Shown piece by piece: positions 2,603 to 33,019 of a stretch of 64,000 nucleotides of DNA. Numbering within the stretch: the first letter of the stretch is position 1; each line of letters starts with the position of its first letter. Made by a program: the position numbers and the translations under genes. A model generated the notes under the pieces. It was not told where the DNA came from. It made no database searches and was given only the letters and a program-made list of their open reading frames with translations. The stretch comes from a virus (taxonomy: Duplodnaviria; Caudoviricetes), in the IMG/VR virus record IMGVR_UViG_3300043174_000028, positions 5,902 to 69,901 of that record; one strand, given 5' to 3'.

Positions 2603-4132
2603 ATGCTCAGGCATCTCATGTTTAGCACCGAACAGGAAAGCTATGACCTTGCCATCCTCATCAAGAACAAGGCCATGATCGAAAGGGAACTAATTACACA
2701 TTACATCCAACCCCTGGAGGATCTGGGCATAGCACGCAAGCAGGTGGTGGCACTCAGCCTTGAGATGTCGGACACCAACAAGGTGACAGCGCAGGAAGCC
2801 AAGGAATGCCTGGCTAACATTGGCTCTTACTGCAAACAAAAAGGCATCCGTCACGTGCTAGTGGCGGATGCCTTCTACTTCAAGACTGCGTGCAAGGTCA
2901 AAAAGGCGGAGCCTCACTACGGCTACGTACTGCCTGCGCCTCTCATCTCGCCCGGTGTCCAGGCTACCTTGAGCGTGAACTACCAACAGCTCTTCTACAA
3001 TCCCAGTCTTAAATCCAGATTGGTTATGGGATTGAATGCAGTAGCAAACAGTATATGTCACAAACCTGGATTGTTTGCAAACTCAATACTGATAAACGCC
3101 AGTTACCCGGAAACCATAGAAGATATAAGTCGAACATTACAGGAATTGCACAGTAAACCTGCACTCACCTGCGACATAGAAACACTAGGACTGAAACCAG
3201 AAGAACAGAGAAGCTTAGTGTCTATTGCCTTTGCCTGGGACAAGTATTCAGGCATAGCGTTCATGCTGAACAACTACCTGCCTAGCCATAGAACCAAGAT
3301 CAAGCAACTGTTGAAAAAGTTCTTCTTGCAATACAAGGGAACTTTAATCTTCCACAACGCAACCTTCGACACCAAGAACCTCATTCACTTCCTGTTCATG
3401 AAGAATCCTTCCGACCTGACAGGGATGCTGGAAGGATTGCACTGTCTCTACCGTAAGCTGGATGACACCAAGTTGCTGGCTTACCTCGCCAGCAATACCA
3501 CGGCTAACAATTCTCTGAGCCTGAAGGATCTGGCCTTCGAGTTTGCTGGCAAGTACAGCCTCGACAGCTTCGACTTCTCAGTGTGTCTGAACCAGAAAGA
3601 GATACTGGAATACAACCTGACCGACTGTGCTGCCACCTGGTATGTCTATGAGGTGTACCGGGAGAAGGTGAGACAGGAACAGGAGTGGATCTATCAGAGC
3701 TTGATGCTGTCTGCGCTCAAGACCATCACTCAGATGGAACTGACAGGCATGGCCATGAGCAAATCTGCCATCGACAGGCTGGCAGAGAACCTGCAAAGGG
3801 ACATGCGCAAGGTGGCACAGGACATTGCAGATCATCCTATTGTGCAGCAGTTCACCAGGGAACTGCGAATAGCAGCAGCCATCGAGCACACGGCACGGCT
3901 GAAGAAAACCATCAAGACGGAGGAAGACTACGCAGATCTGAAGTTCAATCCAGGAAGCAACAAGCATCTGGCAAAGCTCTTGTTCGACCATTTGGCTTTG
4001 CCTGTGTTCAGGTACACCGACACCAATGCTCCCAGCGTGGATGAGAAGTCCCTCAACTCTCTCATTGGCTGGATAAGAAACCAATTACCAGGAGACACAC
4101 ATGGCACAACTGACCCCGCTTCAGGTCTATGA
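2603..4132 (+). CDS. Family A DNA polymerase, block 1 (N-terminal domain, 3'-5' exonuclease, start of thumb)
   Basis: ExoI TCDIET, ExoII FHNATFD, ExoIII YNLTDC, FNPGSNKHLAKLLF; frame closes at 4132 before the polymerase motifs. Confidence 0.9.
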   Translation: MLRHLMFSTEQESYDLAILIKNKAMIERELITHYIQPLEDLGIARKQVVALSLEMSDTNKVTAQEAKECLANIGSYCKQKGIRHVLVADAFYFKTACKVKKAEPHYGYVLPAPLISPGVQATLSVNYQQLFYNPSLKSRLVMGLNAVANSICHKPGLFANSILINASYPETIEDISRTLQELHSKPALTCDIETLGLKPEEQRSLVSIAFAWDKYSGIAFMLNNYLPSHRTKIKQLLKKFFLQYKGTLIFHNATFDTKNLIHFLFMKNPSDLTGMLEGLHCLYRKLDDTKLLAYLASNTTANNSLSLKDLAFEFAGKYSLDSFDFSVCLNQKEILEYNLTDCAATWYVYEVYREKVRQEQEWIYQSLMLSALKTITQMELTGMAMSKSAIDRLAENLQRDMRKVAQDIADHPIVQQFTRELRIAAAIEHTARLKKTIKTEEDYADLKFNPGSNKHLAKLLFDHLALPVFRYTDTNAPSVDEKSLNSLIGWIRNQLPGDTHGTTDPASGL

Positions 4133-4394
4133 AGCACAGCAGATCATCAAGAAACTGGGTGGCGTAGGGATTCTCCAGGTGGATGACATCCCCGTGCTCA
4201 ACACTCAGACAGGTAAGGTACTCAAGCTGATGCTGGACATGAAGTGGCATGAAGCTTGGGAGATCCTCGAAGTGGCAGGAGGTACGGAAGGGCTGAGGCG
4301 TATGCGCACCCTGCGTACCCTGCCGAGAGTGGAGATTCACAAAAGGAAAAGCTTTGGTTCCAGGGGATTTGCCTACCGCCTGGAAGTTACATGA
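4101..4394 (+). CDS. 97-aa hypothetical protein nested between DNA polymerase blocks 1 and 2
   Basis: Own RBS (CAGGAG) inside block 1; stop overlaps the ATG of block 2 (ATGA). Confidence 0.7.
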   Translation: MAQLTPLQVYEAQQIIKKLGGVGILQVDDIPVLNTQTGKVLKLMLDMKWHEAWEILEVAGGTEGLRRMRTLRTLPRVEIHKRKSFGSRGFAYRLEVT

Positions 4395-5005
4395 ACAAGG
4401 ACTATTCGCTGGAAGAAATCCTGAACCTGCTGGAGAGCATCAAGAACCACAACGCTCTGAGCACGATGCTCTCCACTTTCATCAGCTCTTTCCAGAAGAA
4501 CACCCTGTCTCCAGATCCAACCAAGCCAGATGAAGTGCGCCTCTATGGTTCGTTCAACCTGGGAGGCACGCTTAGTGGCAGGTTGAGCAGCAGCTCGCCC
4601 AATCTCCAGAACATTCCCTCGACCGGGACTCCCTATGCCAAGCCTGTGAAGGAGTGCTTCCGCGCTCCTGCAGGCTGGCTCATGGTGGGAGCGGACTTCA
4701 ATGCGCTGGAGGAACGGGTGGGCAGCCTGCTCACCAAGGATCCAAACAGGCTCAAGGTCTACCACGAAGGGTTCGATGGGCACTGTCTCAGGGCCTATGC
4801 GTACTTCGGGGACAAGATGCCGGACATACGCCAGGCAACAGACCAGGAGCGTTGCTTCAAGCTGCAGGCAGGCAAGGATACGGTGTACTGCAAGGCAGAT
4901 GACGTGCTGGTTCTGCCTGACGGAACACGCAAGACGGTGCAACAACTATTCGAGGAGGAAGGCTATGGAGATAAAGCTGACTGCCAAGCCAACCAAGGTC
5001 AGTGA
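4391..5005 (+). CDS. Family A DNA polymerase, block 2 (includes motif A)
   Basis: GGTLSGRLSSSSPNLQNIP, motif A WLMVGADFNALEER, DGHCLRAYAYF. Confidence 0.9.
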   Translation: MNKDYSLEEILNLLESIKNHNALSTMLSTFISSFQKNTLSPDPTKPDEVRLYGSFNLGGTLSGRLSSSSPNLQNIPSTGTPYAKPVKECFRAPAGWLMVGADFNALEERVGSLLTKDPNRLKVYHEGFDGHCLRAYAYFGDKMPDIRQATDQERCFKLQAGKDTVYCKADDVLVLPDGTRKTVQQLFEEEGYGDKADCQANQGQ

Positions 5006-5096
5006 GATCAGCAGTACCGAATTCAACGTCTACTACATCAACTCAATAGCAAAGGAGCATAGGGGACTTCGCCAAGAATCGAAGTCCCCTACTTAG
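4965..5096 (+). CDS. Family A DNA polymerase, block 3 (43 aa, first half of motif B)
   Basis: Strong RBS GAGGAGG then ATG; INSIAKEHRGLRQESKSPT then TAG; matches N4-type LRQxSKxPT. Confidence 0.8.
   Translation: MEIKLTAKPTKVSEISSTEFNVYYINSIAKEHRGLRQESKSPT
5060..5091 (+). promoter_or_regulatory. Perfect 12-bp hairpin in polymerase block 3, ending at the last codon before the coding gap (candidate recoding signal)
   Basis: taggggacttcg (5060-5071) / cgaagtccccta (5080-5091), 8-nt loop. Confidence 0.6.
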
Positions 5097-5098
5097 CT

Positions 5099-5719
5099 TT
5101 TGCCCTTCAGTACGGCAGCAGTGCTAACGGTCTGGTGGAGAACTTTGGCTTTGCCCCGGACCAAGCCAGGAAACTCTATGAGAAGTATCACGAGCTGTAC
5201 GAGGTATCGGATACCTGGGTGCAGCACAAGCTGGAAGAGGCCAGTGCTCGTGGCTATGCAGAGCTGGCCTTTGGTCTGCGTTTGCAGACTCCGATATTGC
5301 AGCAGGTAATCCTGTCGGCCAAGCGGTCCCTGCCTTACGAGGCACACAAGGAAGCCAAGACCGTAGCCAACGCGCACGTGCAGTCATACAGCCTGCTCAA
5401 CACCCGGGCAGCCAATGCCTTCATGCAGCGTGTGTGGAAGTCCAAATACAAGGAACAGATCTTGCCTATTGCCCAGATCCACGACTCCATCTACCTGCTC
5501 ATTCGCAACAACCTGAAAGTTCTTCATTGGGTCAATGAGAACTTGATTGAAGAAATGAACTGGAACCAACTGCCTGAGTTGCAGGATTCTCGGGTGGGAC
5601 TGGAGGCCAAGCTGGAACTGTACTGGCCGGACTGGTCCAAGCCGCACGTCATCCCCAATGGGCTGTCATTGCAGCAGCTCAAGGAACATTTGGTTTCTCT
5701 CAAACTCAAGAAGGAATGA
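5099..5719 (+). CDS. Family A DNA polymerase, block 4 (second half of motif B, motif C); no start codon of its own before FALQYG
   Basis: FALQYG continues motif B after a 5-nt gap; motif C PIAQIHDSIYL; LYWPDWS C-terminus typical of N4-like polymerases. Confidence 0.85.
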   Translation, partial: FALQYGSSANGLVENFGFAPDQARKLYEKYHELYEVSDTWVQHKLEEASARGYAELAFGLRLQTPILQQVILSAKRSLPYEAHKEAKTVANAHVQSYSLLNTRAANAFMQRVWKSKYKEQILPIAQIHDSIYLLIRNNLKVLHWVNENLIEEMNWNQLPELQDSRVGLEAKLELYWPDWSKPHVIPNGLSLQQLKEHLVSLKLKKE

Positions 5720-5722
5720 AAG

Positions 5723-6706
5723 ATGCTGACTAATCGAAAGCATATCCCGCTACCTATGGCCGTATGGCTGGCAGCTCAGGATGGATATGACCTGGAGTTC
5801 CATCCGGAAGTCATCTCCGCCACCGAGTTGCTTCTTCCTTTGCGTTCCTTGGTTCTCTCCCGCAGAACGGAACGCAGGATCGTGCAGGACATCGACGATC
5901 TGGTGCCTTCCCGTCTGGGTACGGCAACCCATACAGCAATGGAGAATGCCTGGCTCAACCACTATGCGGCAGCCATGGCCAACCTGGGCTACTCCGATGA
6001 AGTGATTGCTTCCATCAAGATCAATCCAGATGTAGTCAATCCAGGAGATGTTCCTGTGTATCTGGAGAAGAGAACCAACAGGAAGCTGTTGGATTACACC
6101 ATCTCGGGCAAGTTCGACATTGTTATCAACGGTGAACTGCACGACCTGAAGACTACCAGGACGTTTGCCTGGATCAGTGGATCCAATGACAGGGAGTACC
6201 AGCTACAAGGCAGTATCTATCGTTGGCTTAATCCAGACCTGATTACAGAAGACTACCTGACTATCAACTACTTGTTCACTGACTGGAATGTGAACAGGGC
6301 CATGTCGGAGAACGATTATCCGACTAACCGTTGCATGTCCAAGAAGTTCCCGCTTCTGTCATTGAAGGACATTGAAACCTTCATGGTGGACAAGCTGGCT
6401 CAGTTCAAGAAGTACGAGACAGCCCCACAGGAAGAACTGCCCAAGTGCTCTACCAAGGAACTGTGGCAGGAGCATCCTCGTTGGGCGTACTACAAGAGCC
6501 CGAACAACATGAAACGGGCCACTAAGCTGTTTGATCTGGAAAAGGATGCCAATCTGTTCAACCAGCTCAACGGCAGCAAAGGTGTAGTAGTCAAGAGAGA
6601 AGGCGAACCAAGGCGCTGCAACTACTGCGCTGCCAGGAACTATTGCCTGCAGGCTCAGGACTTCGAGCTGGCGGGATTACTCAACAAACAGGAGACCTAC
6701 CCATGA
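5723..6706 (+). CDS. PD-(D/E)XK exonuclease (N4 gp42-like, Cas4-like)
   Basis: ISGKFDIV...HDLKTT, YQLQGSIY, C-terminal RRCNYC; synteny. Confidence 0.8.
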   Translation: MLTNRKHIPLPMAVWLAAQDGYDLEFHPEVISATELLLPLRSLVLSRRTERRIVQDIDDLVPSRLGTATHTAMENAWLNHYAAAMANLGYSDEVIASIKINPDVVNPGDVPVYLEKRTNRKLLDYTISGKFDIVINGELHDLKTTRTFAWISGSNDREYQLQGSIYRWLNPDLITEDYLTINYLFTDWNVNRAMSENDYPTNRCMSKKFPLLSLKDIETFMVDKLAQFKKYETAPQEELPKCSTKELWQEHPRWAYYKSPNNMKRATKLFDLEKDANLFNQLNGSKGVVVKREGEPRRCNYCAARNYCLQAQDFELAGLLNKQETYP

Positions 6707-8868
6707 GAAAACTGGACACGCTGCAGATGCACCCGCTGCAGCAATCCATCGTAGAGATACTGTCCATCAAGACCCAGAACACGGACACCATGTTCTTTCA
6801 CCTGATGGTGGCTTATCACTTCTCCAAGCTGGCCACCATGATGAGAACCAATGTGTCCATCGATGGGTTGGGCGTGCTGCCGGTGAACATGTACGCCATC
6901 AACCTTGCCCCGTCAGGTAGCGGCAAGGGCCGGTCGATGAACATCATTGAAGATCAGGTCATCAACCGGTTCCGTGAGAGGTTCATGGAAGAAACCTTCT
7001 TCGCCGTATCCAACGAGAACCTGGCCAAGCTCTCCCTGCGTAGAGCCAACAACAAGCACAGCACTCCGGAGATCGAGAAGCAGCTCCTTGAAGATGAGTT
7101 CAACGGAGCTGGTCCCATGGTGTTCAGCTTTGACAGTGCCACTACTGCTGCCGTGAAGCAGATGCGGCACAAGCTACTGCTAGCCAACATTGGATCCATG
7201 AACATGGAGATCGATGAGATTGGCAGCAACATGCTGGGCAACATGGAAGTGCTGACCAGCTTCCTGGAGCTGTTCGACATCGGCAAGATCAAGCAAAAGC
7301 TAACCAAGCACACCAAGGAGAACAACAGGTCTGAGGAACTGTATGGTTCCACTCCGACCAACATGCTGCTGTTCGGTACTCCAACCAAGCTGCTCAATGG
7401 CAGCAAGGTGGAGGACGAGTTCTACGAGATGCTGGAAGTTGGCTATGCCAGAAGGTGTTTCTTTGGCTTCAGCAAGTACCGGAAGCACGAGAAGCCCATG
7501 ACACCGCAGGAGATCTATTCGATCTTCACTGATCCAAACAATGAAAATACCTTGTTCGCCATTGCCGATAAGCTGGCAGAGCTGGCTGACATAGTGAACT
7601 ACGGCAGCACCATCAAGATGCCCAAGGACGTGATGCTGGAACTGATTTCCTACCGCCAGCACTGCGACCACAAGGCAGAGTCCTACTCAGAGTATGAAGA
7701 GATCCGCAAAGCAGAGCTGAAGCATCGTTACTTCAAGGCAGCAAAGCTGGCTGGTACGTATGCCTTCATCGATCAGTCGGTGAACATTACCGAGGATCAC
7801 CTGTACCACGCCATTGCAATGACCGAAGCCTCTGGCAGAGCGTTCGACCAGATCCTCCGTAGGGAACGCCCCTATGCCAAGCTGGCTTCCTACATCTGCA
7901 CCATCAAGCGGGAAGTGACCCACGCAGATCTGGTTGAGGACTTGCCTTTCTACAAGGGCACCGAAGCACAGAAGCGTGACATGCTTTCTTTGGCTGTGGC
8001 CTATGGCTACAAGAACAACCTGATCATCAAGCGTGAAACCATCGACGGGATTGAGTTCCTGTCGGGTAATTCCTTGCCCGTTACCGATCTGAACAAGCTC
8101 AAACTCAGCTACAGCAACGACTTCACCAAAAACTATGACAACCGCAACGGGCATTGGGACAACCTGGTAAACCTTTGCACTCGCGAGGGATACCATTGGT
8201 GCAACCACCACTTCATGGAACACGAGGATTTCCCTAGTCAACGGGGATACCGGGATGAAGCTCATACCTATCCTGGTTTCAATCTTCTGGTTCTGGATGT
8301 GGAGAACAGCGTCTCCATGGACCTGGCCAAGAGCCTGCTCTTCAGCTTTACCTGGTTCATGCACACCACCAAGAGGCACACGCCGGACAATCACCGTTTC
8401 AGGATTGTCCTGCCCATGTCTCATGTGCTGGAGCTGGACCAGAAGGACTACCGGGAGTTCATGAACAACATCTACGACTGGTTGCCCTTCACGGTAGACA
8501 GGCAAACCAACCAAAGGTCCAGGAAGTGGGAGACCTCTCCAGGCACTCACTTCTACAACGCAGGGCATCTGCTCGATGTGCTGCAGTTCATTCCTAAAAC
8601 CAAGAAGGCCGAGGAGAACAAGGTAAAGCTGCTGGAACAGGCTTCCTTGAACAACTTGGAGAGATGGTTCCTGAACCAGATGGAGGAAGGTAACAGGAAC
8701 AACATGCTATTGCGTTATGCCTTCTGTCTCGTGGATCAGAAGATGAGCTTCGACGACATCAAGGCAGAAGTGCTGGCTCTCAACAGCCAGAGCAAGAACC
8801 CACTAGCCAAAGACGAAGTACTGAACACCATCATGGTTTCAGTAGCCAAGAAACTCCAATCAAACTAG
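6703..8868 (+). CDS. DNA primase/helicase-associated protein (N4 gp43-like)
   Basis: APSGSGKG P-loop, EIDEIG, C-terminal primase-like region (TTKRH...RFRIVLP, EGNRNNMLLRYA); synteny. Confidence 0.8.
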   Translation: MRKLDTLQMHPLQQSIVEILSIKTQNTDTMFFHLMVAYHFSKLATMMRTNVSIDGLGVLPVNMYAINLAPSGSGKGRSMNIIEDQVINRFRERFMEETFFAVSNENLAKLSLRRANNKHSTPEIEKQLLEDEFNGAGPMVFSFDSATTAAVKQMRHKLLLANIGSMNMEIDEIGSNMLGNMEVLTSFLELFDIGKIKQKLTKHTKENNRSEELYGSTPTNMLLFGTPTKLLNGSKVEDEFYEMLEVGYARRCFFGFSKYRKHEKPMTPQEIYSIFTDPNNENTLFAIADKLAELADIVNYGSTIKMPKDVMLELISYRQHCDHKAESYSEYEEIRKAELKHRYFKAAKLAGTYAFIDQSVNITEDHLYHAIAMTEASGRAFDQILRRERPYAKLASYICTIKREVTHADLVEDLPFYKGTEAQKRDMLSLAVAYGYKNNLIIKRETIDGIEFLSGNSLPVTDLNKLKLSYSNDFTKNYDNRNGHWDNLVNLCTREGYHWCNHHFMEHEDFPSQRGYRDEAHTYPGFNLLVLDVENSVSMDLAKSLLFSFTWFMHTTKRHTPDNHRFRIVLPMSHVLELDQKDYREFMNNIYDWLPFTVDRQTNQRSRKWETSPGTHFYNAGHLLDVLQFIPKTKKAEENKVKLLEQASLNNLERWFLNQMEEGNRNNMLLRYAFCLVDQKMSFDDIKAEVLALNSQSKNPLAKDEVLNTIMVSVAKKLQSN

Positions 8869-17640: not shown

Positions 17641-20600
17641 CTACTTACCTATCGTGAGAGGGTTCAGGACATTGGCCCATTGGTAGGCAGGGAACTGGAA
17701 TATGTCCGGAACCACCCCGAAGAAGGGTACGTTGAGCCTCTCCCCGGTCAGGCCACTGAAGGACATGAAGTTATCCCCAATGTCCGGAATACCCAGGTTG
17801 GTTAGGGACTGGAACAGCGCCATGCCAATGGTGGCTGTGGGCCTGTCGTGCAGGAGCTTGGCGTAGATACGCTGAGTCCTGAGCAGGAACTTGGAAAACA
17901 TGAACAACCCATAGTCATTGGCAGCCTGCAGGTAGGGATGCTGTGGCTCGTCGTAGTAGACGAAGGAATCCAACACATGGTTGAGGGCAGCTTCCCTGGG
18001 TTGCTTCTCCACCTCGGTCATGTGCTTGAACAGGATGAACCGACCCAGGAAGTCGCTGTAGATGTTGATGCCCATGACCCCGTTGAAGAGCTTGGTACCT
18101 GGGCGCATGAGCACTTCCTTGAAGGCGTTCTGACCTCCCGGGGGGATGAAGGACAGGGCTTCCTTGGACAGCATGGCAATGGGCTTCTTCTTCAGGGCTA
18201 CGTCCCTTGGTTCCACCTCGGCCACGATGCTGGTCAGAACACCCTTCTCGATCAGAACATTGACTGGATTGGCTCGCTGTTGCCGCAGCAGGAACTGTAT
18301 GCGGGCTTCCTCATCTTTCGTGATGGTTCTGGACATGGCCTTGGCATTCAGGTGAGCAAGCTCCTTCTCGACCCTGATGTGCTGGCGCATGGCCGAGATG
18401 CCGACCTTTAGGTTCTGCATGATGTAGGAAGGTGGTACGCCATTGGCCAGCAGCAGAGCAATGTTAGAGATGACATTGCCTATTACGACATTCGGTAGCA
18501 GCAGGATGGTGCTTTTGGCCATGGTGGCTACTTCCTGGATCACCAGGTCCGCCATGTAGATGACTGGGTAGGCATTACGGGGAATCTGGAAGGAGAACTT
18601 GCTCTTCCTGTTTTCCACATGCTTGATAACTGAACCAGTCAGGGTCCACTGCCGCTGACCCATGATGTAGCGGAACATCTCCTTGCGAACCCAGATCTCC
18701 TGAGCACCGAAGACCTTCTCGGCCTGTCTCTTGGCATCCTCGGGGAGCATGGCCCACATCTCCCGCATGGCTGCTTGTGGAGCGTCAGGCGCTACACGGA
18801 CAAAGACTCTCTGCTGCTTCCTGGGCTTGGCCAGGTTACGGGTGTAATCCTGGAACAGAACCTTGGTGGTTTCAGCATTGACCAGCTTGGTGTTGATGCG
18901 GTCCTGCACGGAAGCCAGCATCATGCCAATGTTGGTATTGGCCAGGTCTTCCCGCTTCAGCAGGGTGTCCTTGGTTTTCAGGGACATCATGTACCGCATG
19001 TCCACGATGCGTCCGTCCTTGGAGTAGACGGGAACCATCAGGGCTTCCGTGAAGGACGTAGGGTTGAAGAGCACCTGGTTCTGCATCAGAACCTTGCTTT
19101 CGATGTTGTTCAGGTATTCCTGCACGTTCTCCCTGGCTTCGATGTGAGGGTTGCTTCCTGGCTCATAATCGCCACGGGCAATGTCGAGGAAGCTCGTACC
19201 CTTGTGCTGTTCCGAGGTCAAGGAGTAGATGCCCTTGAGCCAGGAACCCATGTTGTACGGAGCCGTGTAGAGCATACGGCTCTTCGTGTTACTGGGGTCG
19301 TTGGGGTCTCGGGGAACCAACGCAGCAGGGAAGTAACCCAGTTCAGCCAGCTTCTTGCGGGTAGCTTCGTCGTTGTTGTCCACCACTACGGACATGTGCT
19401 GATCGAAGTTCTCCCGAGTCCAGCCCTTCATCATGTGGGATGGATTGTTATTGAAGCTTCTTTCCAGAGAATCTTCCACGAATCCACGGTGAAGCTGCAG
19501 CAATGCCACCATGCCATTCTCGTTAGGTCCCCTCTCCAGCTCCTCCATGAAGATCTTGTGGACCCTTTTCTTCTTGACTGGATCCGCCAGTTGGATGGCA
19601 TAAAGGGTGGCTAGCTCGTCAATGACACCCACCAGATCCTTCAGGGCTTCTTCGTCCTGCCTTTCATCCACGGGCAAGTGCTGCAGCTTGGCAATGTTGT
19701 GCGCGTTCATCTGCGGCAGCACATTGCCGTCCACGAACACGCCCCTGGACAGGTAGCTACCCAGTCCCATTGCCTGGTTCACTACGCTGATCCAGGCAGA
19801 AGGGGCATTCTCCTTGATTATGTCCAGACGGGAGTTGATCTCGGAACTCACCAGAATGTCGTTGTCCAGCAGGTCTGCCAGCTTCTCGACAGGTGCCTTG
19901 TCCAGCATGGACTGCATGTCCAGCCGCAGGACTATATCGTTGGTGGCTTTCCACTCGTCGTCATTGAGTTCCCGACCAAAGGACTTCTCGACGAACTCGG
20001 CATATTTGTCAGCCGTCTTCTTGCGGGCTACGTCAATGAGCTGGTGCGACCACCTAAACAGCTTACGGTAGGTGGAGACGGCATGTTGGGACATGCCGGT
20101 GATCTCCTTACCTACGGAATAGATGAATCCATCCTCGCCAACGAACTCTCGCACGCTCTTGCGGAGAATGTCGTTGTGCTGCTTGCGTACCTTGTTGGAA
20201 CGCAGCCTGACTACAATGTTGCCAAGGTTCTTTGGCAGGGACAGAAGGTGAGACTCTTCGCTTCTCTTGGCTTTGATCTCTTCCGGAGTCAGTCCTTCCA
20301 GTTCCTTCTCTCTTTTCTTGGCTTCATCCGAATAGTATTTATCAGCTTTCTTGAACATGTTGTCCACGAAAGCCTTGAACTTCACATCTCCTTGAGCAAT
20401 GGCTTTAGCTGCTCTCTTCTCCACCTGCCTGAACAAAGTTACCCGCTGGGCTTCGTTCACCGTAGCCAGGTCTTGGAACAGCTTGAGCAGAGACTCTCCT
20501 GCGTTCTTGCCCTTTAGCCGGACACGGCTATCCACCATCAGATCCACAGCACGGGAAAGGATGTTGCCCAGCAGCTTGATTGGATTGTTGGACCAGATCT

Positions 20601-23600
20601 TTTTCTTTTCCGGTATAGGCGTGTTCAGCAGGGCAGTCTTCAGTGCTTTGTTAGTCAAGCCAATGGCAGCAAACTCGTGAAGGTTCATGCCTTTTGGATT
20701 GTTGAAGATGTAGTCCCAGCGAGCCTGAGCTTTGTCCATGTCGGACTGGGTACGCTGACCGTCAGGACTGGGATTGAGCAGATCAACGGGTTGGACATTC
20801 TCCCGGGCTACGTTGTAGAGCTTCTCCACTTCCGTCCTGGCCCAGTGGTCGTTCTCCAGCACGAAATAGAACAGGGCATGGACATACTCGTGGACCGCAG
20901 TCTCCTGCAGGGACATTTCTACGGGAGAGGACGCATGGTTGCCTGCAACCTCCAGCAATACTGAATTGTCCTTGGAGTGGAAGGCACCCAGGTTCAGCGT
21001 ACCGGCAAGGTTGAACTGGACTGTCTGGGAGAATCCATCCGTATGCGCCAAGGCAGGGACGATGATGGTCTCCATGATCGAACGCAGATCCTCTGCGTGC
21101 TCTTCGTCTATCGCCACATTTTCGTGCTTAATCAGCTCCTCGAAAATGTTCATAGCATTGGCTGCAGTAACCCGATTTGAGTTCTTGGCCAGGAACTCTT
21201 GCAGCTTTGGCATGGTTCCCGAAGAACCAAGGGTTTCACCAGAACCAGAAGTTTCCGAGCTTGTTTCAGGTGCAGCCTTTGATGTTGTTTGGGTTGCAGC
21301 ATTTGGATTGGCAGTGAAGGCGCTGCCATTCAAGCCAGTAGAAAAGTGAGCAACTTGTCCAATCTCGTTGAACAAATACATCCTGTTAGCCATCACTTCT
21401 AACTGCAATCTGGTGTATCTAAAAGTATCTATTTCTTCCAACAGATCGATGAGTGCATTTGAGAAATCTTTTTCAGGGACATCTTCCAATTTCTCTAAAG
21501 CCTGACGAGCAAACTCATCACCTACTTCTTCCGTGAGAAATCCAGCAACCATGGCTATACGGGCTACCCTGTTACCCGCAGGAAACAGAGTGGTATTGTC
21601 CAGGCTTAGGTACACTCTGAGCTGATCCAGCCTTTTGATGTAACTGTCAATCACAGAGTCAATGAGGCTGTAGCTGCTATTTACCTTGTAGAGCAATTCG
21701 TTGAGCTTCTTGGCTATGCCTTCTACATGGTCAGTTCCATGTAGGAAAGCATCGTAGATTTGCAGCAGTTCCAGTTGAGCAAGGATGGCAGTCATGATGC
21801 TGCCGTCTATCGAGTGCACACCTTTACCCGTACCGCCTACGCCAACACCGCCCTTGTCTCCAGCTCCACCTACTGGTTTCACCCTCACTACTTGTACTTT
21901 ACCCTCCACCCTTTGCATAACGTGGCCTACTTCAGAAGGGTTAAGCACCATTCTGTTGTTAGGAACGCTTACTGAAGCTCTGCCGTTAGGCAAGGGCTCA
22001 CGCAGAGTTACTCGGGTAGTTCGCTGATCTGGCCGGTTAGCCATACCACTCAATAGCAGCTCTTGCATTGGACTATTGGTGGGAGTAGTCGGCGTGGGGA
22101 ATGAAGACAGCAGGCTTTTGCCAAACAGGAAGTCAAAGATTTCCTGTTCTTCTTTGCGAGTAGGCATTACTCCATTTTCATTTTTGAATTGCTCGACAGC
22201 TGCATCAAAGAACTTCTCACCAATTTTGTGCATTCTGTTGGTGAGTTCGGTAATGACGCTCTTGAGTTCCAGAAGTCCACCAAACTTCTTAACAATAGCT
22301 ACTCGCATTCCCAAGCCAATGGTTCTTTCCAGGGATCGCCGCATAACGCTATCCATCGACAGATTCCTATCGACAGTTACGATGTCTTCAGCGAACCAAT
22401 TACGTGCAAACTCAACCAGGGGAGTGTTGGAAACTCCTTCTTCAACTTTGGTTTTAAGAATCTTTTCTGCAGTCAAGTTTTCAAAGATTGCTTTTATTTT
22501 GTCCCGGTCAAACCCAGGCTGTGGAACATACTTGCGAGCAAGTGGTTCACCAGAAATATTTTTAATAACCCCAGTTGCAATAAGAGCGTTGTAGATACGC
22601 TCTGAACTGGGATTAACATCCCAACCAGCTCGGTAGTAACTCTTGATATGGTTGATGACATTCTCAGCAGCATTGTCATCACCTCTTTCTGCTAGAGCCA
22701 TCAGCTTCTCGTACCACATGGTCAAAGCTTTATCGCCCAAATTGCGAGCCAGGGCAGCCAAGCCAGCACCATAGATAGCTTGCATCAGAGGGTCTTTGAA
22801 CAACTCACGGATAGCTTTCAATACTCGTTGAGTTGTTGGATCCAGGATGGCAGGAATCATCCCATCCATTTTGTGAAAGTGGTTAAAGTGATAAATCATT
22901 TCACTAATCATTCTGGCTTTCTTTCTGTCAGATACGTCATCTCCGACAAAGTTATTAAGCTTCGCAGCAACAGCAACTAGAGTTTTCTGATCCGCTTCAT
23001 CTCTATCCTTTTCAGGCTTATCCAGAATCTTGGAAACTGTGCTGATGGAATCTGCAAGATCCTGGGTTACTTCCGTTGAATCTACAGCCAGTGCCTCATA
23101 GTTGTCCGTGTTGCCGGTATCTCGGAAATATTCACCTACGCTGCTATACCACTGGTCCTTGTAGAAGATGCCAGTGCCGTTGAGGATCTTCTTGATGTAT
23201 GCCGCAGTATCTTCTGGGGAAACCCCAGAACTAACCATAGGCATTTGCATGACGCTCAACGCCACCGCATTGGTCAGAGCGTCAGCTTCCGTAGGCAGAA
23301 TGAACTCAAAGTTGGCAGGCAGGCTATTGTCTGCTGCATAGGCAGCTTTGGCTTGCTGGTAATTGGCCCAGGTCTTCAAGCCAATAAGGCTATGCATCTT
23401 CTCCCCAAGCACCTTGGTTACTTTGGCTCGGTCCTCGTCAGTCCAAGGAGCCTTATTGTTCTCATCGAACAAGTGCAGCAGGCTGGCGTACTTGGGCGAG
23501 TACAGCTGTTCCAGGATGTGCTTGGCAAAGTTTGCATCCACCACATTCTTGTCAGCACCGCTCTGCACTGCACTCGGTTGATCCGGGAACAGGGGGGCTT

Positions 23601-26241
23601 TCAAGCCAAGAGCTGTGCTAATGGAAAATATGAACGGCAGGAACTCTGGTTTGGTTTCCAGGTCTGGATCAGTCAGATCCAAGCTGGAAGTCCAGGCAGT
23701 AGTTCCAACAAAGAACCGAATGATCTTGCTGGCTGCCGGGCTAAAGATTCCATCAATCATGTTTCGATTGTTACGCGCCATCATCTGACGCATGTACACC
23801 GTAGGAGATCCCGCAGTTATGTACGCGAACAGGGTCTTCAGATCGGTCAACAAAGTCAGATTGCGACCTTCCTGGGAGAGTTCGTCAGAAAGGTGAACCG
23901 ACCTTGGATCTTTCCAGCCAAACATCACAGCTATCTGCTGCATGTCTCCCATGCGCTTCAGCAGATCAACCATTCCATCAATGGCTCTGTAGGGAACAGT
24001 CTGCGCTTTTTGCTGCCCTTTGATCTGATCTGGAGTCAACTCCTGGGAAGTACCAGAGATCTTTGGATCTACCCTTTTAATGGGCTTGGTGTTGAACAGG
24101 TCCGCTTTGTTTTCAACACCAAATATCAATTCCAAAGTGGTACCGAGAACAGTGAAAGTATCGATGATCTTTTCAATGTTCTTGTGCGGACTCCAGTAGG
24201 AGTCCGTGTCTTCAGCAGTGATGTTGAACTTCTTGTTCCCTGCAGGGTACAAACGAATAAAACTGATTTCAGTATCAGTAACGGTTTCACCGTTCTTGTC
24301 CTGATATTGAGGATTTGCTGAGTTGTAGAGAAAAGGAATATCCGTGTACTCGTCGGAAGTAGGATCTTCCCTTCTGGCAGAAAACCATCTTTGACTGATT
24401 CTTTTTGGAACCAGCTCACCATTAACCACCATGGTTGGTTCTGCAAATATGCGCAGCTTCCAGGCAGTGCCCAGCGTAAGAAGAGCCAACGAGTTAACCA
24501 GATCTTGCTTGAAGTAACCGGACACTCCACCAAATTCATCCAGATTCAACGCTTGCTCGATGGAAGCACTCAGTTCTTTTATGACGGTGCTTCTGAGCAT
24601 CCCCATGTCTTGCAGAACTCGCGTTTCTTCCTCGGTAACGAACGATCTACCCATCAAGCTTTCAATGCTCTCTGAGTCGTTGTACATCAGCTTTCTGCCG
24701 TGCATACCCAGGAACTTGAACAGAGCCAAGGCCATTGCACCAATAACATTGGGCGGTAGCCGACCTGACTCTGCATCTCGCAGGTAGTGGTAAGGAGCTG
24801 TGTTGAGCTGCTGCTGAAGGTTGGCGTAGCTCTTACCTTCCCTTACGTGGATGGGACTGGTAGCTTCCGTTGGATCTCCATCCTGTGCAGGACGAATCTC
24901 CGGCATCACCTTGTCGTAGAGCATCCGTGAGAACTGCTCGGTGAAAACAGAGAACCGTTTCAGAGGTTCCTCGAAAGACACTTCCGTAGTCTTGAACAGA
25001 TCTTCAAGAAACTGTGGAACCCGGAAAGACTGAATGAATGAGGGGAAGAAGGAGAAGAATGTATCGTTCTTAGCCCGGGGGAATACTCCAGTCTCCAGAG
25101 AACCAACCTCAATATTGTCGTTACGGATTACATCCGCAGCTATGTTGGGGTCGTTGATTATCTGGTTCTCTACCATCTGCAGGAACAGAGTCAGGTCATT
25201 GTTGGCAATGAACATCTGCTCTCTGGTATTGGAACCAACATTGGTAAAGAACGTGATGTTCACGTCCAGAGCAGTCTTCTGCAGACTGGTGAGGCTTTGC
25301 AACTGTTCTTCCGGAGTCTGGTCGGAAAGAATCTCAAAGGTTTCCAGAGTACGCTTTTCCAGGATCTCCATTGCTTCCTGGCGCTGCTTCTCCACTTCCT
25401 CCAAGTTGAGATTTTTTGCGTTCTCAGAGTTCTTTATGTCGCTGACAGCCAAAGCTCTCAGCACATCCAACACGGTACCTACAGCCCAAGCTCCACCCTC
25501 AACTTTGAGAAATCCATTACTGCGAACCAAACCAACAAACTTGGCGTAACGGACATAGTGCGGATTGGTTAGGCGGTAATAGCGGTTGTACGCATAGTTC
25601 ATGCGTTCAGACAGGTCTTTCAGTTCAGCCAACTTAACAGGCTCTTTTTTCTCCAGCTTAGTAACCAGGGCTTCTAGCTCCTTCATGCGCCTGTCGGTCA
25701 TGTCACCGGATGCTGCCGACCAAATCCTGATCTCAGGATGCTGCTGCCTGAAGCTCTGCAGTACGTTGAGCTTGTCCCTGAACATCTTGGAATTGTCTTT
25801 AAGCTTGCGCTTAAAGACTTTCTCAACGCTACCACCAATGGCCTTCTTCAAAGCCTCCATAATGCTTTTGACATAGCCATCAATAAACGCTCTGCGATTG
25901 GCAGCGTTTTCATCTTTCTGAGCTTTAAGAGCAGCCTTTCTGCTATTGGCTTTGAAATGCTGCAAAACCTTTTCTGAATCGGACATGTTTCTTGCTTTGT
26001 TTGTGTCCTCTGCTGCTTTTGCAGCATTTGCTTTGTTCTGCTGTTTTTGTTCCAGCAATCCTTTGTAGTACGTATAGAACTTCTTGAAGTTATCTATGTT
26101 GTGCAACAACGAAAGATCTCCAGATGCCTCTGGATCAATTCCACTCTCATACAGCATCTCTTCTAAAGCATCCGGCGAATGCTTCTGCCGAATAGCCTCG
26201 ACCATTTTCTTCAAACTTTCGATGTCACAGCTAGTAGCCAT
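17641..26241 (-). CDS. Virion-encapsidated RNA polymerase (N4 gp50 polymerase and C-terminal domains), 2866 aa
   Basis: T7-family motif A EADALTN, motif B RELFKDPLMQAIYG, motif C VHSID...IYDA; zincin-like HEYVH; a single Cys (residue 5). Confidence 0.9.
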   Translation of the reverse strand: MATSCDIESLKKMVEAIRQKHSPDALEEMLYESGIDPEASGDLSLLHNIDNFKKFYTYYKGLLEQKQQNKANAAKAAEDTNKARNMSDSEKVLQHFKANSRKAALKAQKDENAANRRAFIDGYVKSIMEALKKAIGGSVEKVFKRKLKDNSKMFRDKLNVLQSFRQQHPEIRIWSAASGDMTDRRMKELEALVTKLEKKEPVKLAELKDLSERMNYAYNRYYRLTNPHYVRYAKFVGLVRSNGFLKVEGGAWAVGTVLDVLRALAVSDIKNSENAKNLNLEEVEKQRQEAMEILEKRTLETFEILSDQTPEEQLQSLTSLQKTALDVNITFFTNVGSNTREQMFIANNDLTLFLQMVENQIINDPNIAADVIRNDNIEVGSLETGVFPRAKNDTFFSFFPSFIQSFRVPQFLEDLFKTTEVSFEEPLKRFSVFTEQFSRMLYDKVMPEIRPAQDGDPTEATSPIHVREGKSYANLQQQLNTAPYHYLRDAESGRLPPNVIGAMALALFKFLGMHGRKLMYNDSESIESLMGRSFVTEEETRVLQDMGMLRSTVIKELSASIEQALNLDEFGGVSGYFKQDLVNSLALLTLGTAWKLRIFAEPTMVVNGELVPKRISQRWFSARREDPTSDEYTDIPFLYNSANPQYQDKNGETVTDTEISFIRLYPAGNKKFNITAEDTDSYWSPHKNIEKIIDTFTVLGTTLELIFGVENKADLFNTKPIKRVDPKISGTSQELTPDQIKGQQKAQTVPYRAIDGMVDLLKRMGDMQQIAVMFGWKDPRSVHLSDELSQEGRNLTLLTDLKTLFAYITAGSPTVYMRQMMARNNRNMIDGIFSPAASKIIRFFVGTTAWTSSLDLTDPDLETKPEFLPFIFSISTALGLKAPLFPDQPSAVQSGADKNVVDANFAKHILEQLYSPKYASLLHLFDENNKAPWTDEDRAKVTKVLGEKMHSLIGLKTWANYQQAKAAYAADNSLPANFEFILPTEADALTNAVALSVMQMPMVSSGVSPEDTAAYIKKILNGTGIFYKDQWYSSVGEYFRDTGNTDNYEALAVDSTEVTQDLADSISTVSKILDKPEKDRDEADQKTLVAVAAKLNNFVGDDVSDRKKARMISEMIYHFNHFHKMDGMIPAILDPTTQRVLKAIRELFKDPLMQAIYGAGLAALARNLGDKALTMWYEKLMALAERGDDNAAENVINHIKSYYRAGWDVNPSSERIYNALIATGVIKNISGEPLARKYVPQPGFDRDKIKAIFENLTAEKILKTKVEEGVSNTPLVEFARNWFAEDIVTVDRNLSMDSVMRRSLERTIGLGMRVAIVKKFGGLLELKSVITELTNRMHKIGEKFFDAAVEQFKNENGVMPTRKEEQEIFDFLFGKSLLSSFPTPTTPTNSPMQELLLSGMANRPDQRTTRVTLREPLPNGRASVSVPNNRMVLNPSEVGHVMQRVEGKVQVVRVKPVGGAGDKGGVGVGGTGKGVHSIDGSIMTAILAQLELLQIYDAFLHGTDHVEGIAKKLNELLYKVNSSYSLIDSVIDSYIKRLDQLRVYLSLDNTTLFPAGNRVARIAMVAGFLTEEVGDEFARQALEKLEDVPEKDFSNALIDLLEEIDTFRYTRLQLEVMANRMYLFNEIGQVAHFSTGLNGSAFTANPNAATQTTSKAAPETSSETSGSGETLGSSGTMPKLQEFLAKNSNRVTAANAMNIFEELIKHENVAIDEEHAEDLRSIMETIIVPALAHTDGFSQTVQFNLAGTLNLGAFHSKDNSVLLEVAGNHASSPVEMSLQETAVHEYVHALFYFVLENDHWARTEVEKLYNVARENVQPVDLLNPSPDGQRTQSDMDKAQARWDYIFNNPKGMNLHEFAAIGLTNKALKTALLNTPIPEKKKIWSNNPIKLLGNILSRAVDLMVDSRVRLKGKNAGESLLKLFQDLATVNEAQRVTLFRQVEKRAAKAIAQGDVKFKAFVDNMFKKADKYYSDEAKKREKELEGLTPEEIKAKRSEESHLLSLPKNLGNIVVRLRSNKVRKQHNDILRKSVREFVGEDGFIYSVGKEITGMSQHAVSTYRKLFRWSHQLIDVARKKTADKYAEFVEKSFGRELNDDEWKATNDIVLRLDMQSMLDKAPVEKLADLLDNDILVSSEINSRLDIIKENAPSAWISVVNQAMGLGSYLSRGVFVDGNVLPQMNAHNIAKLQHLPVDERQDEEALKDLVGVIDELATLYAIQLADPVKKKRVHKIFMEELERGPNENGMVALLQLHRGFVEDSLERSFNNNPSHMMKGWTRENFDQHMSVVVDNNDEATRKKLAELGYFPAALVPRDPNDPSNTKSRMLYTAPYNMGSWLKGIYSLTSEQHKGTSFLDIARGDYEPGSNPHIEARENVQEYLNNIESKVLMQNQVLFNPTSFTEALMVPVYSKDGRIVDMRYMMSLKTKDTLLKREDLANTNIGMMLASVQDRINTKLVNAETTKVLFQDYTRNLAKPRKQQRVFVRVAPDAPQAAMREMWAMLPEDAKRQAEKVFGAQEIWVRKEMFRYIMGQRQWTLTGSVIKHVENRKSKFSFQIPRNAYPVIYMADLVIQEVATMAKSTILLLPNVVIGNVISNIALLLANGVPPSYIMQNLKVGISAMRQHIRVEKELAHLNAKAMSRTITKDEEARIQFLLRQQRANPVNVLIEKGVLTSIVAEVEPRDVALKKKPIAMLSKEALSFIPPGGQNAFKEVLMRPGTKLFNGVMGINIYSDFLGRFILFKHMTEVEKQPREAALNHVLDSFVYYDEPQHPYLQAANDYGLFMFSKFLLRTQRIYAKLLHDRPTATIGMALFQSLTNLGIPDIGDNFMSFSGLTGERLNVPFFGVVPDIFQFPAYQWANVLNPLTIGK

Positions 26242-26264: not shown

Positions 26265-29200
26265 TTACTGGCACTTGTTCAGGAAATCTTCCATGTCATT
26301 CAAAATATTCTCATTGGCTTCACCAACTACATTGGTTTTACCTTCTTCTTCCAAAGAGTTTGGAGCAGCTTCTTGTCCAGCTTTTGGTGCACCAAACATG
26401 TTCTGGAAAAGGGACTGTAGCTGAGCCCCTGTCATGTTGCTTGGATTAGTAGGTGTAGATGGCTCTGTTTCTGGATTAGGTGTTTGGTTAGGTGTTTGGT
26501 TAGGTGTGGGATTAGGTGTGGAATTAGGTACATTTTGCCCACTAGCTAGCCTTTTAAGAGCTGCAGCAAAATCAGCACCACTAACAACACGATCCCCTTC
26601 TCCAATATCGGGATACTCTTCTTCTTCTTCCTGCTGCTGCTGCTGCTGTGCTTGAGTTGTTGTAGCCGTAGCCGTAGCTGTCGTCGTATCTGTTGCCGTA
26701 GCTGCTTCAGCATTACTTGCAACATCAAGCTCACTCTGCGCTTCGAGGAAAGCGGCAAACCTTTCTGCTGCGTCTTTTTTGGCAAGATTAAATACGGGAA
26801 TACCTTTACGGGAAGCCATGTCAATAGCTTGACCAGTGCCTCCAGTATCTATGGTTCTTTCCGCAGAAGTCTCTACACCATCAGGTGTCCAAGTCAGCAC
26901 GAAATCAACCGGCGAATCTAAATTCTTACCAAAGATCTGATTGGTGCTTCTTGCCATAAGCGCCAATCCATAAGCATTGAGCTTATCAGGCTGTGGATGA
27001 AGCTCTTTGGCTATTTCTTTAGTTTGATCCGTAGCATCTTTTGCAAGGAAGATTTCCTTGTTTTCCACATTTTCGCCAAATGCAGTGTCTACTCCGACCG
27101 CACCTCCAGAACGCAATACATAACCGAGTTTTTCAAGTATCTTTGCGTACTTGGCTACTAATTCCAAAACTGCTTTCGGAGCTTGTCTAGCGCCTATGCC
27201 TGCATAGGTCATGGTTCTAACTGCAGGATTCTTACTAGGCAGCTTGTCAAAGATAGGTGTCTTGCGTGTGCCACTAGCAGCTTTGGGTTTGTTCTGCGCG
27301 ACATACTCTTTCAGGCCAGCAATAAGCTCTTCAAACTTTGCTGGGTCAACCAGGGCTTCACCCAGGATCCGCATGACCCTGAAACCAAAGCTGGAATCCT
27401 TGTCTTCCTCTGCACCAATGACATTCAGAGTCTTGATGTTGTTGGTTTTCAGGAACTCCCTGATTTGGTCAGCAACCACCTTGGCATAGTCCTTATCCGA
27501 CATGCCTTCAGGCTTGACCATATCCAAGAACAAATAGGGCTTGCTGTTCCTGTCTCCTTCCAAATACTGCAGAGCCTTCTTGTTAGCAAAACTCAGATTC
27601 ACGCCTTCACGCTTCCACAGAATAGTGCCATCAGAATTGGCAATGTTCTGCACCAGCGTCTCAAGATCGTTACCGTAGTCCTTTGGCAGAAGACCAAACC
27701 GCCGACCCAGGATTGAGAGCTTGTCTACGATCAGATCCTTTAGAGCAATTCCTCCGGTCAGCAGATTAAACATCTCTGCGATGTACAGAGAACCAGTATC
27801 TCCACCGCTTCTACCTGCAGAAGTGACCTTCTCGACAGAGAGTTCTGGGTTCAAGGGCAGGTTGCCTGGCTTCCTGTCTTTCCCGAGATCTTCCCCTGTA
27901 GGTACACCCTCGTACCGGGCAACCATGAGCATCTTGAAGCTTTCATACAGAGCCTTGGCGTAGAAGTCCAAGTCCTGCTGCATAGTCTCCACGCTGTTCA
28001 GGTCTGCACCCTTTCCAGCTTTCTGGTACTGCAAAGCCAAAAGCAAACCAAAGAAGTTGTTGAGCATTGGGCTCATGTTAGAGACGTACTGGATCCGCAA
28101 GGGAGTAACTACGCTACCTGCGATTGGATCCATGGCAGCCAACTTGGCTGCGAGTTCTTGCCTGTCTTTTTCGGGGAGAGTGTTTCCATATAACTCACCC
28201 GTCAAAGGCACAAAGCTTCCGTCTTTAGCCTGAGAAATAAACTTCACTTCGAGCTTGTTCTTTGCACCCTCTTCCGCAGCAGGCGTGTAGTTGAAGACCC
28301 AATTAAGCTTGACTGCCTCTACCAGATCCAACTTATCCAGAGTCAAACCAAACAGCTTCTTCAGCTTGCCTATCAGCTTGCCAGCTATTCCTCGGACATT
28401 CTTTTCAGCCACTCTGTCTGAACGAAATTCTCCGAACTTCTTAAAGTTCTCCTGGACCGACTTAATGATTTCAACCTGAGTGCTGACCCACTCCTCACTG
28501 GTCTTGTCCAACTGCTCCAGCGCATCACCGTCCAGCTCACGCTTGATGACTTCATAAGCCCTCAAAGCCTGGAACAACTCAGCATTGGCTCTGGCATTTA
28601 CGCTGTCTTTGGTTTTCAGCAGAGCATTTATGTTTACACCTGCTTCTGTGAGTCTCTTGACGACCTCTTCGCCAAGATTCTCTTTCAGGTTTTTAATGAA
28701 CTTGTCTACGTCAGAGATCTCGGAGATCTCAATGCTCGTGCTGTCCTTATTCAAGCCAACAAGCTTGTTGGTCTTTTCCAGGGACGGCTTGACCAAGCCG
28801 ACCTTGAAATCGACATTGCTCAGACTCTTCAGGAAATCCCTGACATTGGACACCACGTAGAGCAGTACGCCGGTACGCTTGGGCTGAGGATTCTTCTTTG
28901 GACCAGTACCGGCCCCGGTACCCGTGCCTGTACCTGTGCCAGTACCCGCACTCTCTGCGCCACCTGAGCCCCCTCTAGGCCCTCTACCGCCTGACCCTGT
29001 ACCTACCCCTTCCCCGGCCTCTCCGCCGCCTCTCTGGCCACCGGAACGCCCAACCAGCCAGTCAGAGAAACGTGTCTGGAGCTTGCTGAAGATCTCCGTG
29101 AACTGGTTGGCAGTTTCAGCATCCAGCTTGCCGATGAAGTCAGCCAGTTGAGCCACCAGCTCTTTGACCCTGGCATGGGTCTCTGCGGTGTAGGGTCCGT

Positions 29201-33017: not shown

Positions 33018-33019
33018 GC

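Follow-up and report, generated by a model that had tools for sequence, protein, structure and literature searches.

A family A DNA polymerase gene of an N4-like phage, probably read out as three chains, with a candidate 5-nt ribosomal hop beside a homing endonuclease scar

The family A DNA polymerase gene at positions 2603 to 5719 of the 64,000-nucleotide (nt) stretch of phage DNA analyzed here (the window) is split among several open reading frames (ORFs). In our judgment it probably gives rise to a three-chain enzyme, the third chain being completed by a ribosomal hop of +5 nt, with one of the two interruptions (site 2) being the scar of a mobile cassette. Chain 1 would be encoded by 2603-4132 and chain 2 by 4391-5005, the latter including a 58-residue tail; chain 3 would start at ATG 4965 with a head of ~24 residues, continue through the first half of catalytic motif B, pass a coding gap at 5094-5098, and run on into 5099-5719 (all on the + strand). 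The window makes up most of a 69.9-kb IMG/VR record whose completeness was judged to be 94%. The order of the helicase, polymerase, exonuclease, and primase genes and the best DNA matches point to the N4-like phages (Schitoviridae), here one found in freshwater metagenomes, and no close cultured relative of the phage was found. The anatomy of the locus, its reproducibility, the purifying selection in the proposed frames, and the conservation of the architecture in relatives are read directly from the data.

Read in a single frame, 2603-5719 consists of three long open stretches separated by short ones that contain stops. These three (blocks 1, 2, and 4) share one frame, while a 97-residue ORF, here called ORFx, and a 43-residue ORF (4965-5096, block 3) lie in another. 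We mapped the blocks by tblastn with three intact Schitoviridae polymerases and by a Pfam profile scan. Block 1 (2603-4132; chain 1, 509 residues) carries the 3'-5' exonuclease domain and the first thumb helix: homolog residues 1 to ~490 align with 2606-4066, PF01612 (DNA_pol_A_exo1) scores 32.3 bits (cutoff, 23.6), and positions 11-68 of the DNA_pol_A profile (PF00476) are matched, the chain ending at TGA 4130-4132 after a short lineage-specific C-terminal extension. The polymerase part of block 2 (4391-4828) encodes the second thumb helix, palm motif A, and the early fingers; it is 49-55% identical to intact homologs, with homolog residues ~494-633 on 4412-4828 and DNA_pol_A positions 73-203 on 4391-5005. 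The first half of motif B, with the O-helix Arg and Lys, is encoded at 5037-5093, the homolog-like end of the 43-residue ORF, which is 74% identical to residues 641-659 of an intact homolog, lies in a different frame, and closes with the Thr codon ACT 5091-5093. Block 4 (5099-5719, 206 residues), 43% identical to homologs, carries the second half of motif B, the remaining fingers, and palm motif C; here homolog residues 659-847 align with 5096-5662 and DNA_pol_A positions 213-362 with 5063-5719. PF00476 scores 74 bits on block 2 and 45.9 bits on block 4 (cutoff, 34.3), and identity to intact Schitoviridae polymerases is 32-55% over all blocks.

By these alignments the gene is that of a family A DNA polymerase of the N4-like clade with a PF01612-type exonuclease, matched by the profile along its whole length, and none of the polymerase sequence has been lost. 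Relative to the homologs there are two insertions, at about 4067-4411 (site 1) and 4829-5036 (site 2), and the frame change at 5094-5098 is a third irregularity, at which no residue is lost. An earlier note on this DNA had proposed four polymerase blocks with motifs A and C on different ORFs. All four blocks were located where it had placed them, with motif A intact on block 2 and motif C intact on block 4, but it had overlooked a fifth ORF, ORFx (4101-4394), which fills the first break. Its placement of block 4 at 5099 was correct as to location, but not as to a start there: no ATG, GTG, or TTG occurs in frame before GTG 5135, which is itself 3' of the second half of motif B, so that block 4, translated by itself, could not yield the whole of motif B.

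The sequence codes for each of the O-helix residues Arg, Lys, Phe, and Tyr of motif B, and the spacing seen in the family is restored only if exactly 5094-5098 (TAG plus CT), the 5-nt coding gap between the two halves, is skipped. The earlier note had also invoked recoding, and a complete motif B is indeed impossible without a frame change inside the motif. The gap is present and unchanged in two independent contigs (L017 and L038) and in sequencing runs X1 to X3, all described below. As a separate observation, the frame of the 43-residue ORF remains open for ~70 further codons past TAG 5094 (5100-5309, +), so that a read-through product would exceed 110 residues; this open frame may be due to chance in GC-rich DNA.

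The insertion at site 2 is made up of two segments. The first is a C-terminal extension (CTE, the tail) of 58 residues plus a stop, in frame with chain 2 (4829-5005). It is missing from intact polymerases and is conserved at the protein level, with conservative amino acid replacements, in eight other split lineages. The second is an N-terminal extension (NTE, the head) of ~24 residues that opens the 43-residue ORF at ATG 4965 (4965-5036); its final ~11 residues may be a diverged copy of the native polymerase segment. The head is kept in L019, L020, L030, L033, and L041/42, with identical first three residues and an overlap with the 3' end of an endonuclease gene. No match that would indicate a function for head or tail was found in PHROGs, Pfam, or NCBIfam, and a tblastn search of a phage collection with a 47-residue head ORF gave none at an E value of 1e-3. 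A metagenome search with chain 2, in turn, returned many proteins of the same size, 45-52% identical, with the same start and a homologous tail at the end.

Breaks at site 1, site 2, or both are present in about eight diverged metagenomic N4-like lineages (L018/19, L020, L021/22, L030, L031, L032, L033, and L041/42). In L018/L019, L020, and L041/L042, a chain 1 of ~490 residues is followed by a cargo ORF of ~160 residues (L018 to L020 only), a chain 2 of ~200 residues with a tail, an HNH endonuclease of ~200 residues, a 47-residue ORF with a head of the window type, and the rest of the polymerase. L030 shares this layout, with site 1 free of cargo. L032 has a 191-residue chain 2 with a tail, a different 113-residue ORF 5' of it, and an endonuclease-like ORF 3' of it, the contig stopping before motif B. 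L033 is the closest to the window by its tail and head and is unsplit at site 1. In L021/L022, the polymerase ORFs have 493, 176, and 234 residues, motif B is intact, and a 47-residue ORF, possibly an endonuclease remnant, lies between the second and the third. In L031, whose motif B is also intact, the polymerase is interrupted ~20 residues closer to its N terminus, by the tail, the endonuclease, and a similar head.

Endonuclease ORFs are present between the polymerase fragments in L018 to L020, L030 to L033, and L041/42, as judged by NUMOD4 and/or HNH_3 matches or by close similarity to such ORFs; they lie between tail and head and overlap both out of frame. In the window itself, neither the ORF list nor the Pfam scan revealed an endonuclease ORF in 4829-5036. 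Because both tail and head move with the endonuclease in L031, they belong to the mobile cassette, and the window appears, by this comparison, to hold the cassette after loss of the endonuclease, with tail and head kept. That site 2, in the fingers, is the scar of a mobile HNH endonuclease cassette is well supported by these comparisons, as is the view that the splits are functional and conserved. L018 and L019, from one sample, are identical for >3 kb from upstream of the polymerase through the endonuclease and the gap, to 13 nt past it; from 5317 on, about one-fifth of positions differ. The divergence point suggests an element end, a co-conversion tract, or a recombination or homing boundary. 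No close cassette-free relative on which the element ends could be mapped was found, the best IMG/VR relatives being 56-69% identical. The tail might have arisen by duplication and decay of the polymerase segment that follows it, to which the L019 tail alone aligns, and weakly. We also note that in two more distant family A polymerases from IMG/VR (L014 and L015), stretches of 263-867 nt and ~390 nt are inserted elsewhere in the gene, after homolog residues 593 and 672.

In the window, the take-off codon ACT is directly followed by TAG, and reading would resume after GCT, which differs from ACT at one position. In the relatives L019, L020, L030, and L041/42, the 5 additional nt follow the second Thr codon of motif B, four codons 3' of the window gap. 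Their pattern is a Thr codon, TAA, and a second Thr codon overlapping the stop, the take-off and landing codons being ACG/ACA in L019, ACG/ACG in L020 and L041/42, and ACT/ACT in L030. The window gap is preceded by a perfect 12-bp hairpin with an 8-nt loop (5060-5091, +; local fold z = -4.4) that ends on the first base of the take-off codon, and perfect hairpins of at least 10 bp number only four in the whole window. A hairpin precedes the gap in L019 (10 bp, z = -3.8), in L020 (12 bp, z = -2.9), and in L030, where it has 8 bp and is not significant (z = -0.7). The hairpin abuts the take-off codon, and its position shifts together with that of the gap between the window and the relatives; local folding of gapless homologs gave no significant structure at this place. 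L021 and L031 are gapless, so the break is not obligatory.

We envisage a cassette of three parts: an in-frame tail, an HNH homing endonuclease encoded by a free-standing ORF, and a head from which the downstream fragment gets its start codon. In the window phage, the endonuclease would have been lost and the tail and head kept, most likely clasping chains 2 and 3 together. The 5-nt insertion would lie in the probable recognition DNA of the endonuclease and would protect the carrier from its own enzyme, a plausible role for which the position of the intron-borne homolog in phage nACB1, at the same place in motif B (see below), is indirect support. Because the O-helix tolerates no extra residues, the insertion would be kept out of the protein by recoding. 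Most likely, peptidyl-tRNA-Thr would leave ACU as UAG enters the A site and re-pair 5 nt downstream, aided by the hairpin immediately 5' of the site. Such a +5 hop is plausible.

Complex prediction bears on the assembly of the chains. For chain 2 with the 43-residue ORF, the interaction prediction score from aligned errors (ipSAE) was 0.63, and the best of three controls reached 0.00; that mark was attained by 58 of 80 solved complexes, as opposed to 2 of 110 mismatched pairs. The prediction runs share at least 97% of contacts, the predicted local distance difference test value of the partner is at least 77, and the interface is formed mainly by CTE residues 145-191 of chain 2 with NTE residues 1-29. 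It is plausible, on this model, that tail and head clasp chains 2 and 3 together, and the chains would then assemble into one polymerase. The co-folding that the earlier note had called for, applied to these two partners, predicts binding, and its proposal of about three assembling chains combined with recoding draws support from the recurrent splits, the frame-specific synonymous substitutions, and the predicted tail-head contact.

Several points weigh against the three-chain reading with a hop. The landing codon in the window is GCU, which is not a Thr codon, so that a G-U pair at the first codon position would be needed. The window gap lies four codons upstream of the relatives' gap, and the two are therefore not the same insertion. 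The relatives' five letters are a tandem duplication at the Thr-Tyr codons, which yields the TAA and a matched landing codon automatically, so that these two features are weaker evidence of selection than they seem. In L033 (1690-1700), the closest relative by tail and head, a tract of four T at the position of the window gap includes one T too many; this would call for a +1 shift, unless the lone contig of 3.1 kb contains a homopolymer error. A -1 shift, with two residues added, is a less likely but possible route. The codons of motif B themselves account for some of the propensity to form the hairpin. The complex prediction was built on our own alignments, and its polymerase-derived contacts may be a memory of solved Pol I folds. 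We know of no counterpart of the tail and head segments in solved polymerases, so that the tail-head contacts are unlikely to be memory. Lastly, short stop-hops in synthetic constructs are reported as non-programmed and of low efficiency (bioRxiv 10.1101/2022.08.31.505936).

The strongest competing explanation, which we regard as unlikely, holds that the frame change in motif B is a -1 (or +2) frameshift or that there is no recoding, the 43-residue product and a product started at GTG 5135 being separate chains of a four-chain enzyme. Shifts of -1, +2, and +5 all enter the same frame, the run of four C at 5086-5089 would permit tRNA-Pro to slip back one base, and the landing codon of a hop in the window is noncognate; for the version with no recoding, GTG 5135 does exist. 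A -1 shift would, however, add two residues between the O-helix Lys and the Phe/Tyr pair, where the spacing is constant in all homologs, and in the relatives between Phe and Tyr. No downstream stimulatory structure was seen; the strong structure is upstream. Starting at GTG 5135 would lose the second half of motif B altogether, and a single-nucleotide polymorphism (SNP) at 5125, which precedes this GTG, is a synonymous change in no frame but that of block 4, although this is a single SNP. The hop at 5094-5098 remains the reading that we prefer.

A very improbable alternative is that the polymerase is a recently inactivated pseudogene or that its breaks are sequencing or assembly artifacts. In its favor, four frame changes lie inside 1 kb of one gene, and the genome comes from a metagenome assembly and not from an isolate. 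The same breaks, however, are found with zero indels in independent contigs and in runs from four studies. Contig L038 (2,276 nt, from another metagenome) aligns with 3432-5707 without gaps, differing at 9 positions (99.6% identity); L017, a JGI contig of 2,687 nt from a different sample, aligns with 4189-6875, also without gaps, with 35 substitutions (98.7% identity). Logan contigs from four runs in four studies of freshwater and groundwater, which are assembled DNA contigs and two of which may come from the source sample, show no inserted or missing letters and no joints on 3900-5300; such contigs do not reveal rare variants, RNA ends, or splicing, and the public runs listed for the locus included no RNA data set. 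Groundwater run X3 spans the site 1 junctions and the motif B gap (bridging 4016-4395 and 5018-5187). ORFs of 2866, 2254, and 2412 residues elsewhere in the window are unbroken; together with L017, L038, and the Logan runs, these intact long ORFs rule out random indel errors.

Selection can be read from the 25 distinct substitutions among three strains in 3432-5719, 22 of which are synonymous in the proposed frames, compared to 4 and 1 in the other two (binomial P of about 3e-9 at a generous 30% expectation of synonymous changes). By segment, synonymous SNPs make up 3/3 in chain 1, 9/10 in the polymerase part of chain 2, and 6/8 in block 4. Of the five SNPs that fall within the insertions, ORFx and the tail have two each and the head has one (5021); each is synonymous only in the frame of its own ORF, the last in that of the 43-residue ORF; these frame-specific changes indicate that the inserted segments are translated and under selection. 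The architecture is shared, moreover, by lineages ~30% diverged at the DNA level, and the polymerase of a cultured member of the Schitoviridae, nACB1, is also interrupted in motif B, by a homologous endonuclease carried in a group I intron. The breaks are neither assembly errors nor decay, the latter as the earlier note had judged from the sequence alone; they did not vanish in other assemblies, and the comparison of breakpoints that it had proposed shows both sites recurring in several diverged N4-like lineages, with proper starts and stop/start overlaps. For annotation, polymerase genes with such a layout should not be called pseudogenes.

The nACB1 interruption also indicates what the endonuclease may recognize. 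In this cultured Acinetobacter phage (L037, OQ032511), an insertion of ~850 nt in polymerase motif B (3360-4210) carries an HNH endonuclease 49.5% identical to that of L019. Both flanks of the insertion are group I intron by Rfam (E = 9e-9 and 1e-5), and the first eight letters of nACB1 exon 2 equal the L019 gap and the next codon. The intron site and the shared letters make the motif B DNA a likely homing target of this endonuclease family. Whereas the apparent target is the same, the arrangements differ: a group I intron would restore one mRNA and one chain in nACB1, whereas in the window and its relatives no intron is detectable and the products are separate, and the endonuclease gene lies inside motif B in nACB1 but ~140 nt upstream of it in the relatives. 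The nACB1 record annotates the polymerase as two separate "DNA polymerase" coding sequences plus a third, probably spurious, on the opposite strand.

The insertions in the window would, on a further account, be self-splicing introns or an intein, with a normal single-chain polymerase made from the mature mRNA or protein; to this we give very little weight. It is not without precedent. I-HmuI of phage SPO1 is an intron-borne HNH endonuclease in a phage family A polymerase gene. A 2013 paper on N4-like vibriophages (PMC3670811; JA-1/VchO139-I) described a polymerase gene split by HNH genes and suspected the latter to lie in introns, so that, besides the endonuclease in nACB1, that of JA-1 may be in an intron, the JA-1 split being at another site with noncoding flanks. 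The window also contains a group I intron elsewhere (41150-41411, - strand; Rfam, 68.8 bits; fold z = -4.7), the only one to reach the Rfam threshold; it extends into the 5' end of ORF 40635-41330, and ORF 41589-42692 (- strand) is immediately upstream of it. By our own reading, moreover, the CTE begins with a sequence loosely like the first intein block.

Against splicing, Rfam (RF00028) found no match in 3900-5400 even at E values up to 10, nor in seven related loci at E values up to 1, although the true introns in the window and nACB1 were detected. The inserts fold no better than shuffled sequence (z = -0.3 and -1.1, compared to -4.7 for the real intron); on the Rfam null and these unremarkable folds, we reject a group I intron at either insertion. 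The SNPs in the inserts, five of five, are synonymous in the ORF frames, and replacements in the tail are conservative across lineages. The endonuclease of the relatives is a separate ORF with its own start in another frame, and the 5-nt gap would remain after splicing. An intein Hint fold takes ~130 residues or more, includes splicing blocks A, B, F, and G, and ends in an Asn that precedes a nucleophile. Tail and head come to ~80 residues in total, which is too short for it, and no intein model in Pfam or NCBIfam matched at E values up to 10, so that we reject an intein or split intein as well.

The insertion at site 1, at the tip of the thumb, holds ORFx (4101-4394, +), a 97-residue passenger gene with its own Shine-Dalgarno-like sequence, a start within the end of chain 1, and a stop that overlaps the chain 2 ATG (ATGA). 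A free-standing homolog of ORFx, 58% identical, lies beside a terminase small subunit gene on an unrelated contig (L016), where a small Cys-rich, zinc-ribbon-like ORF (526-756) sits between the two. ORFx has no match in Pfam, PHROG, or NCBIfam; its neighbors in the ESM Atlas, as judged by language model and structure, are phage HTH_39 and winged-helix clusters, which we take as a lead, and no more, to a winged-helix-like gene. The cargo at site 1 varies, being ORFx in the window, an ORF of ~160 residues in L018 to L020, and absent in L030 and L041/42. Site 1 thus appears, from the comparison of lineages, to be an old, clade-wide split that collects variable cargo genes. A long bypass like that of gene 60 was considered over sites 1 and 2, given the in-frame CTA codons before TGA 4130 and at 4373, 243 nt apart; we reject it because of the ordinary start codons, stop/start overlaps, and out-of-frame cargo ORFs at these sites in the relatives.

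Elsewhere in the window, two adjacent giant ORFs of 2866 residues (17641-26241) and 2254 residues (26265-33029) on the - strand occupy the genome position of the virion RNA polymerase. N4-like phages have one virion RNA polymerase gene at that position, and the pair may be another gene in pieces.

It is possible, and we put it forward tentatively, that these loci form a second natural family of phage translational-bypass elements: a motif B-targeting HNH cassette with a 5-nt shield that ribosomes would hop at a Thr codon next to a stop, helped by a hairpin that ends at the take-off codon; a portable tail/head pair that would keep the two halves of the enzyme together; and, given the older split at the thumb tip, a three-chain polymerase. 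To our knowledge, no programmed bypass other than the efficient one of T4 gene 60 was known in phages for decades. As candidates for bypass, the loci are simple and open to testing, with a 5-nt gap, defined flanking codons, and a hairpin that moves with the site, and nature supplies variants for comparison in the different gap position, a 1-nt version, and gapless versions. They also extend to a new host gene and phage family the notion of homing endonucleases that bring their own repair kit, consisting of re-joining tails and a gap that blocks self-cleavage. A replicative family A polymerase apparently in three chains is relevant to polymerase structure and to the engineering of split enzymes. 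In the literature, we found no family A polymerase gene described as having a tail/head cassette or a coding gap.

Among known systems, the closest precedent is the mobA element of phage T4 with the split genes 39/60, as presented by Manning and Atkins, who cite Bonocora et al. (2011). In T4, the gene for the topoisomerase large subunit is divided into genes 39 and 60 by an HNH endonuclease gene, and translation bypasses 50 nt; the element contributes a CTE of ~44 residues and an NTE of 44-46 residues, and the coding gap comes after codon 46. That gap prevents self-cleavage, no residues being inserted into the conserved region, and lineages of this type that have no endonuclease retain the tails and the bypass gap (bioRxiv 10.1101/2022.08.31.505936). 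The parallels are extensive. In both systems an HNH endonuclease gene (here, that of the relatives) lies within an essential, conserved gene; the upstream fragment bears an in-frame tail of about 44-58 residues; the downstream ORF opens with an element-encoded head and a short host-like stretch; and 43-47 codons of that ORF (46 in T4) precede the coding gap, the take-off codon being followed at once by a stop. In both, the endonuclease ORF is overlapped by the tail and head ORFs in other frames, and lineages that have lost the endonuclease keep tails and gap. The two differ in the host gene, a family A polymerase of N4-like podophages as opposed to a myophage topoisomerase, and in the length of the gap, 5 nt here compared to 50. 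Here there is also no take-off stem-loop around the take-off codon, the hairpin ending at it instead; the landing codon in the window is noncognate; and a second, independent split at site 1 gives three chains. Tail and head gave no meaningful match to the T4 39-mobA-60 region, and the relatives' endonucleases showed no more than marginal similarity to the T4 mobA remnant (E values of 0.01-0.03 for a subject of 3 kb), so the resemblance is functional and not one of membership. By analogy, the cassette would work like the T4 mobA/gene 60 element without being a member of it.

The earlier note had taken as its precedent the nrdA gene of phage Aeh1, split by mobE, and the likeness holds: a free-standing HNH endonuclease there also splits an enzyme gene, and the fragments carry added tails and form an active complex (bioRxiv 10.1101/2022.08.31.505936). 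No coding gap or recoding is reported for Aeh1, however, and the enzyme is a different one with two chains and not three; since site 2 appears to be the scar of a mobile HNH endonuclease cassette, T4 mobA, a split gene with bypass, is the closer system. The hop itself may be compared with the engineered synthetic stop-hops of +5 and +6 nt of Weiss et al. (1987), as they are cited in a 2016 recoding review (PMC5009743). According to that review, natural short-distance counterparts of gene 60 have long been presumed, and few utilized cases are listed. In the synthetic constructs, as would be the case here, the peptidyl-tRNA re-pairs a few bases downstream over a stop, between matched codons; in contrast to them, the site described here is natural, lies in an essential gene, is conserved across lineages, and is paired with a hairpin.

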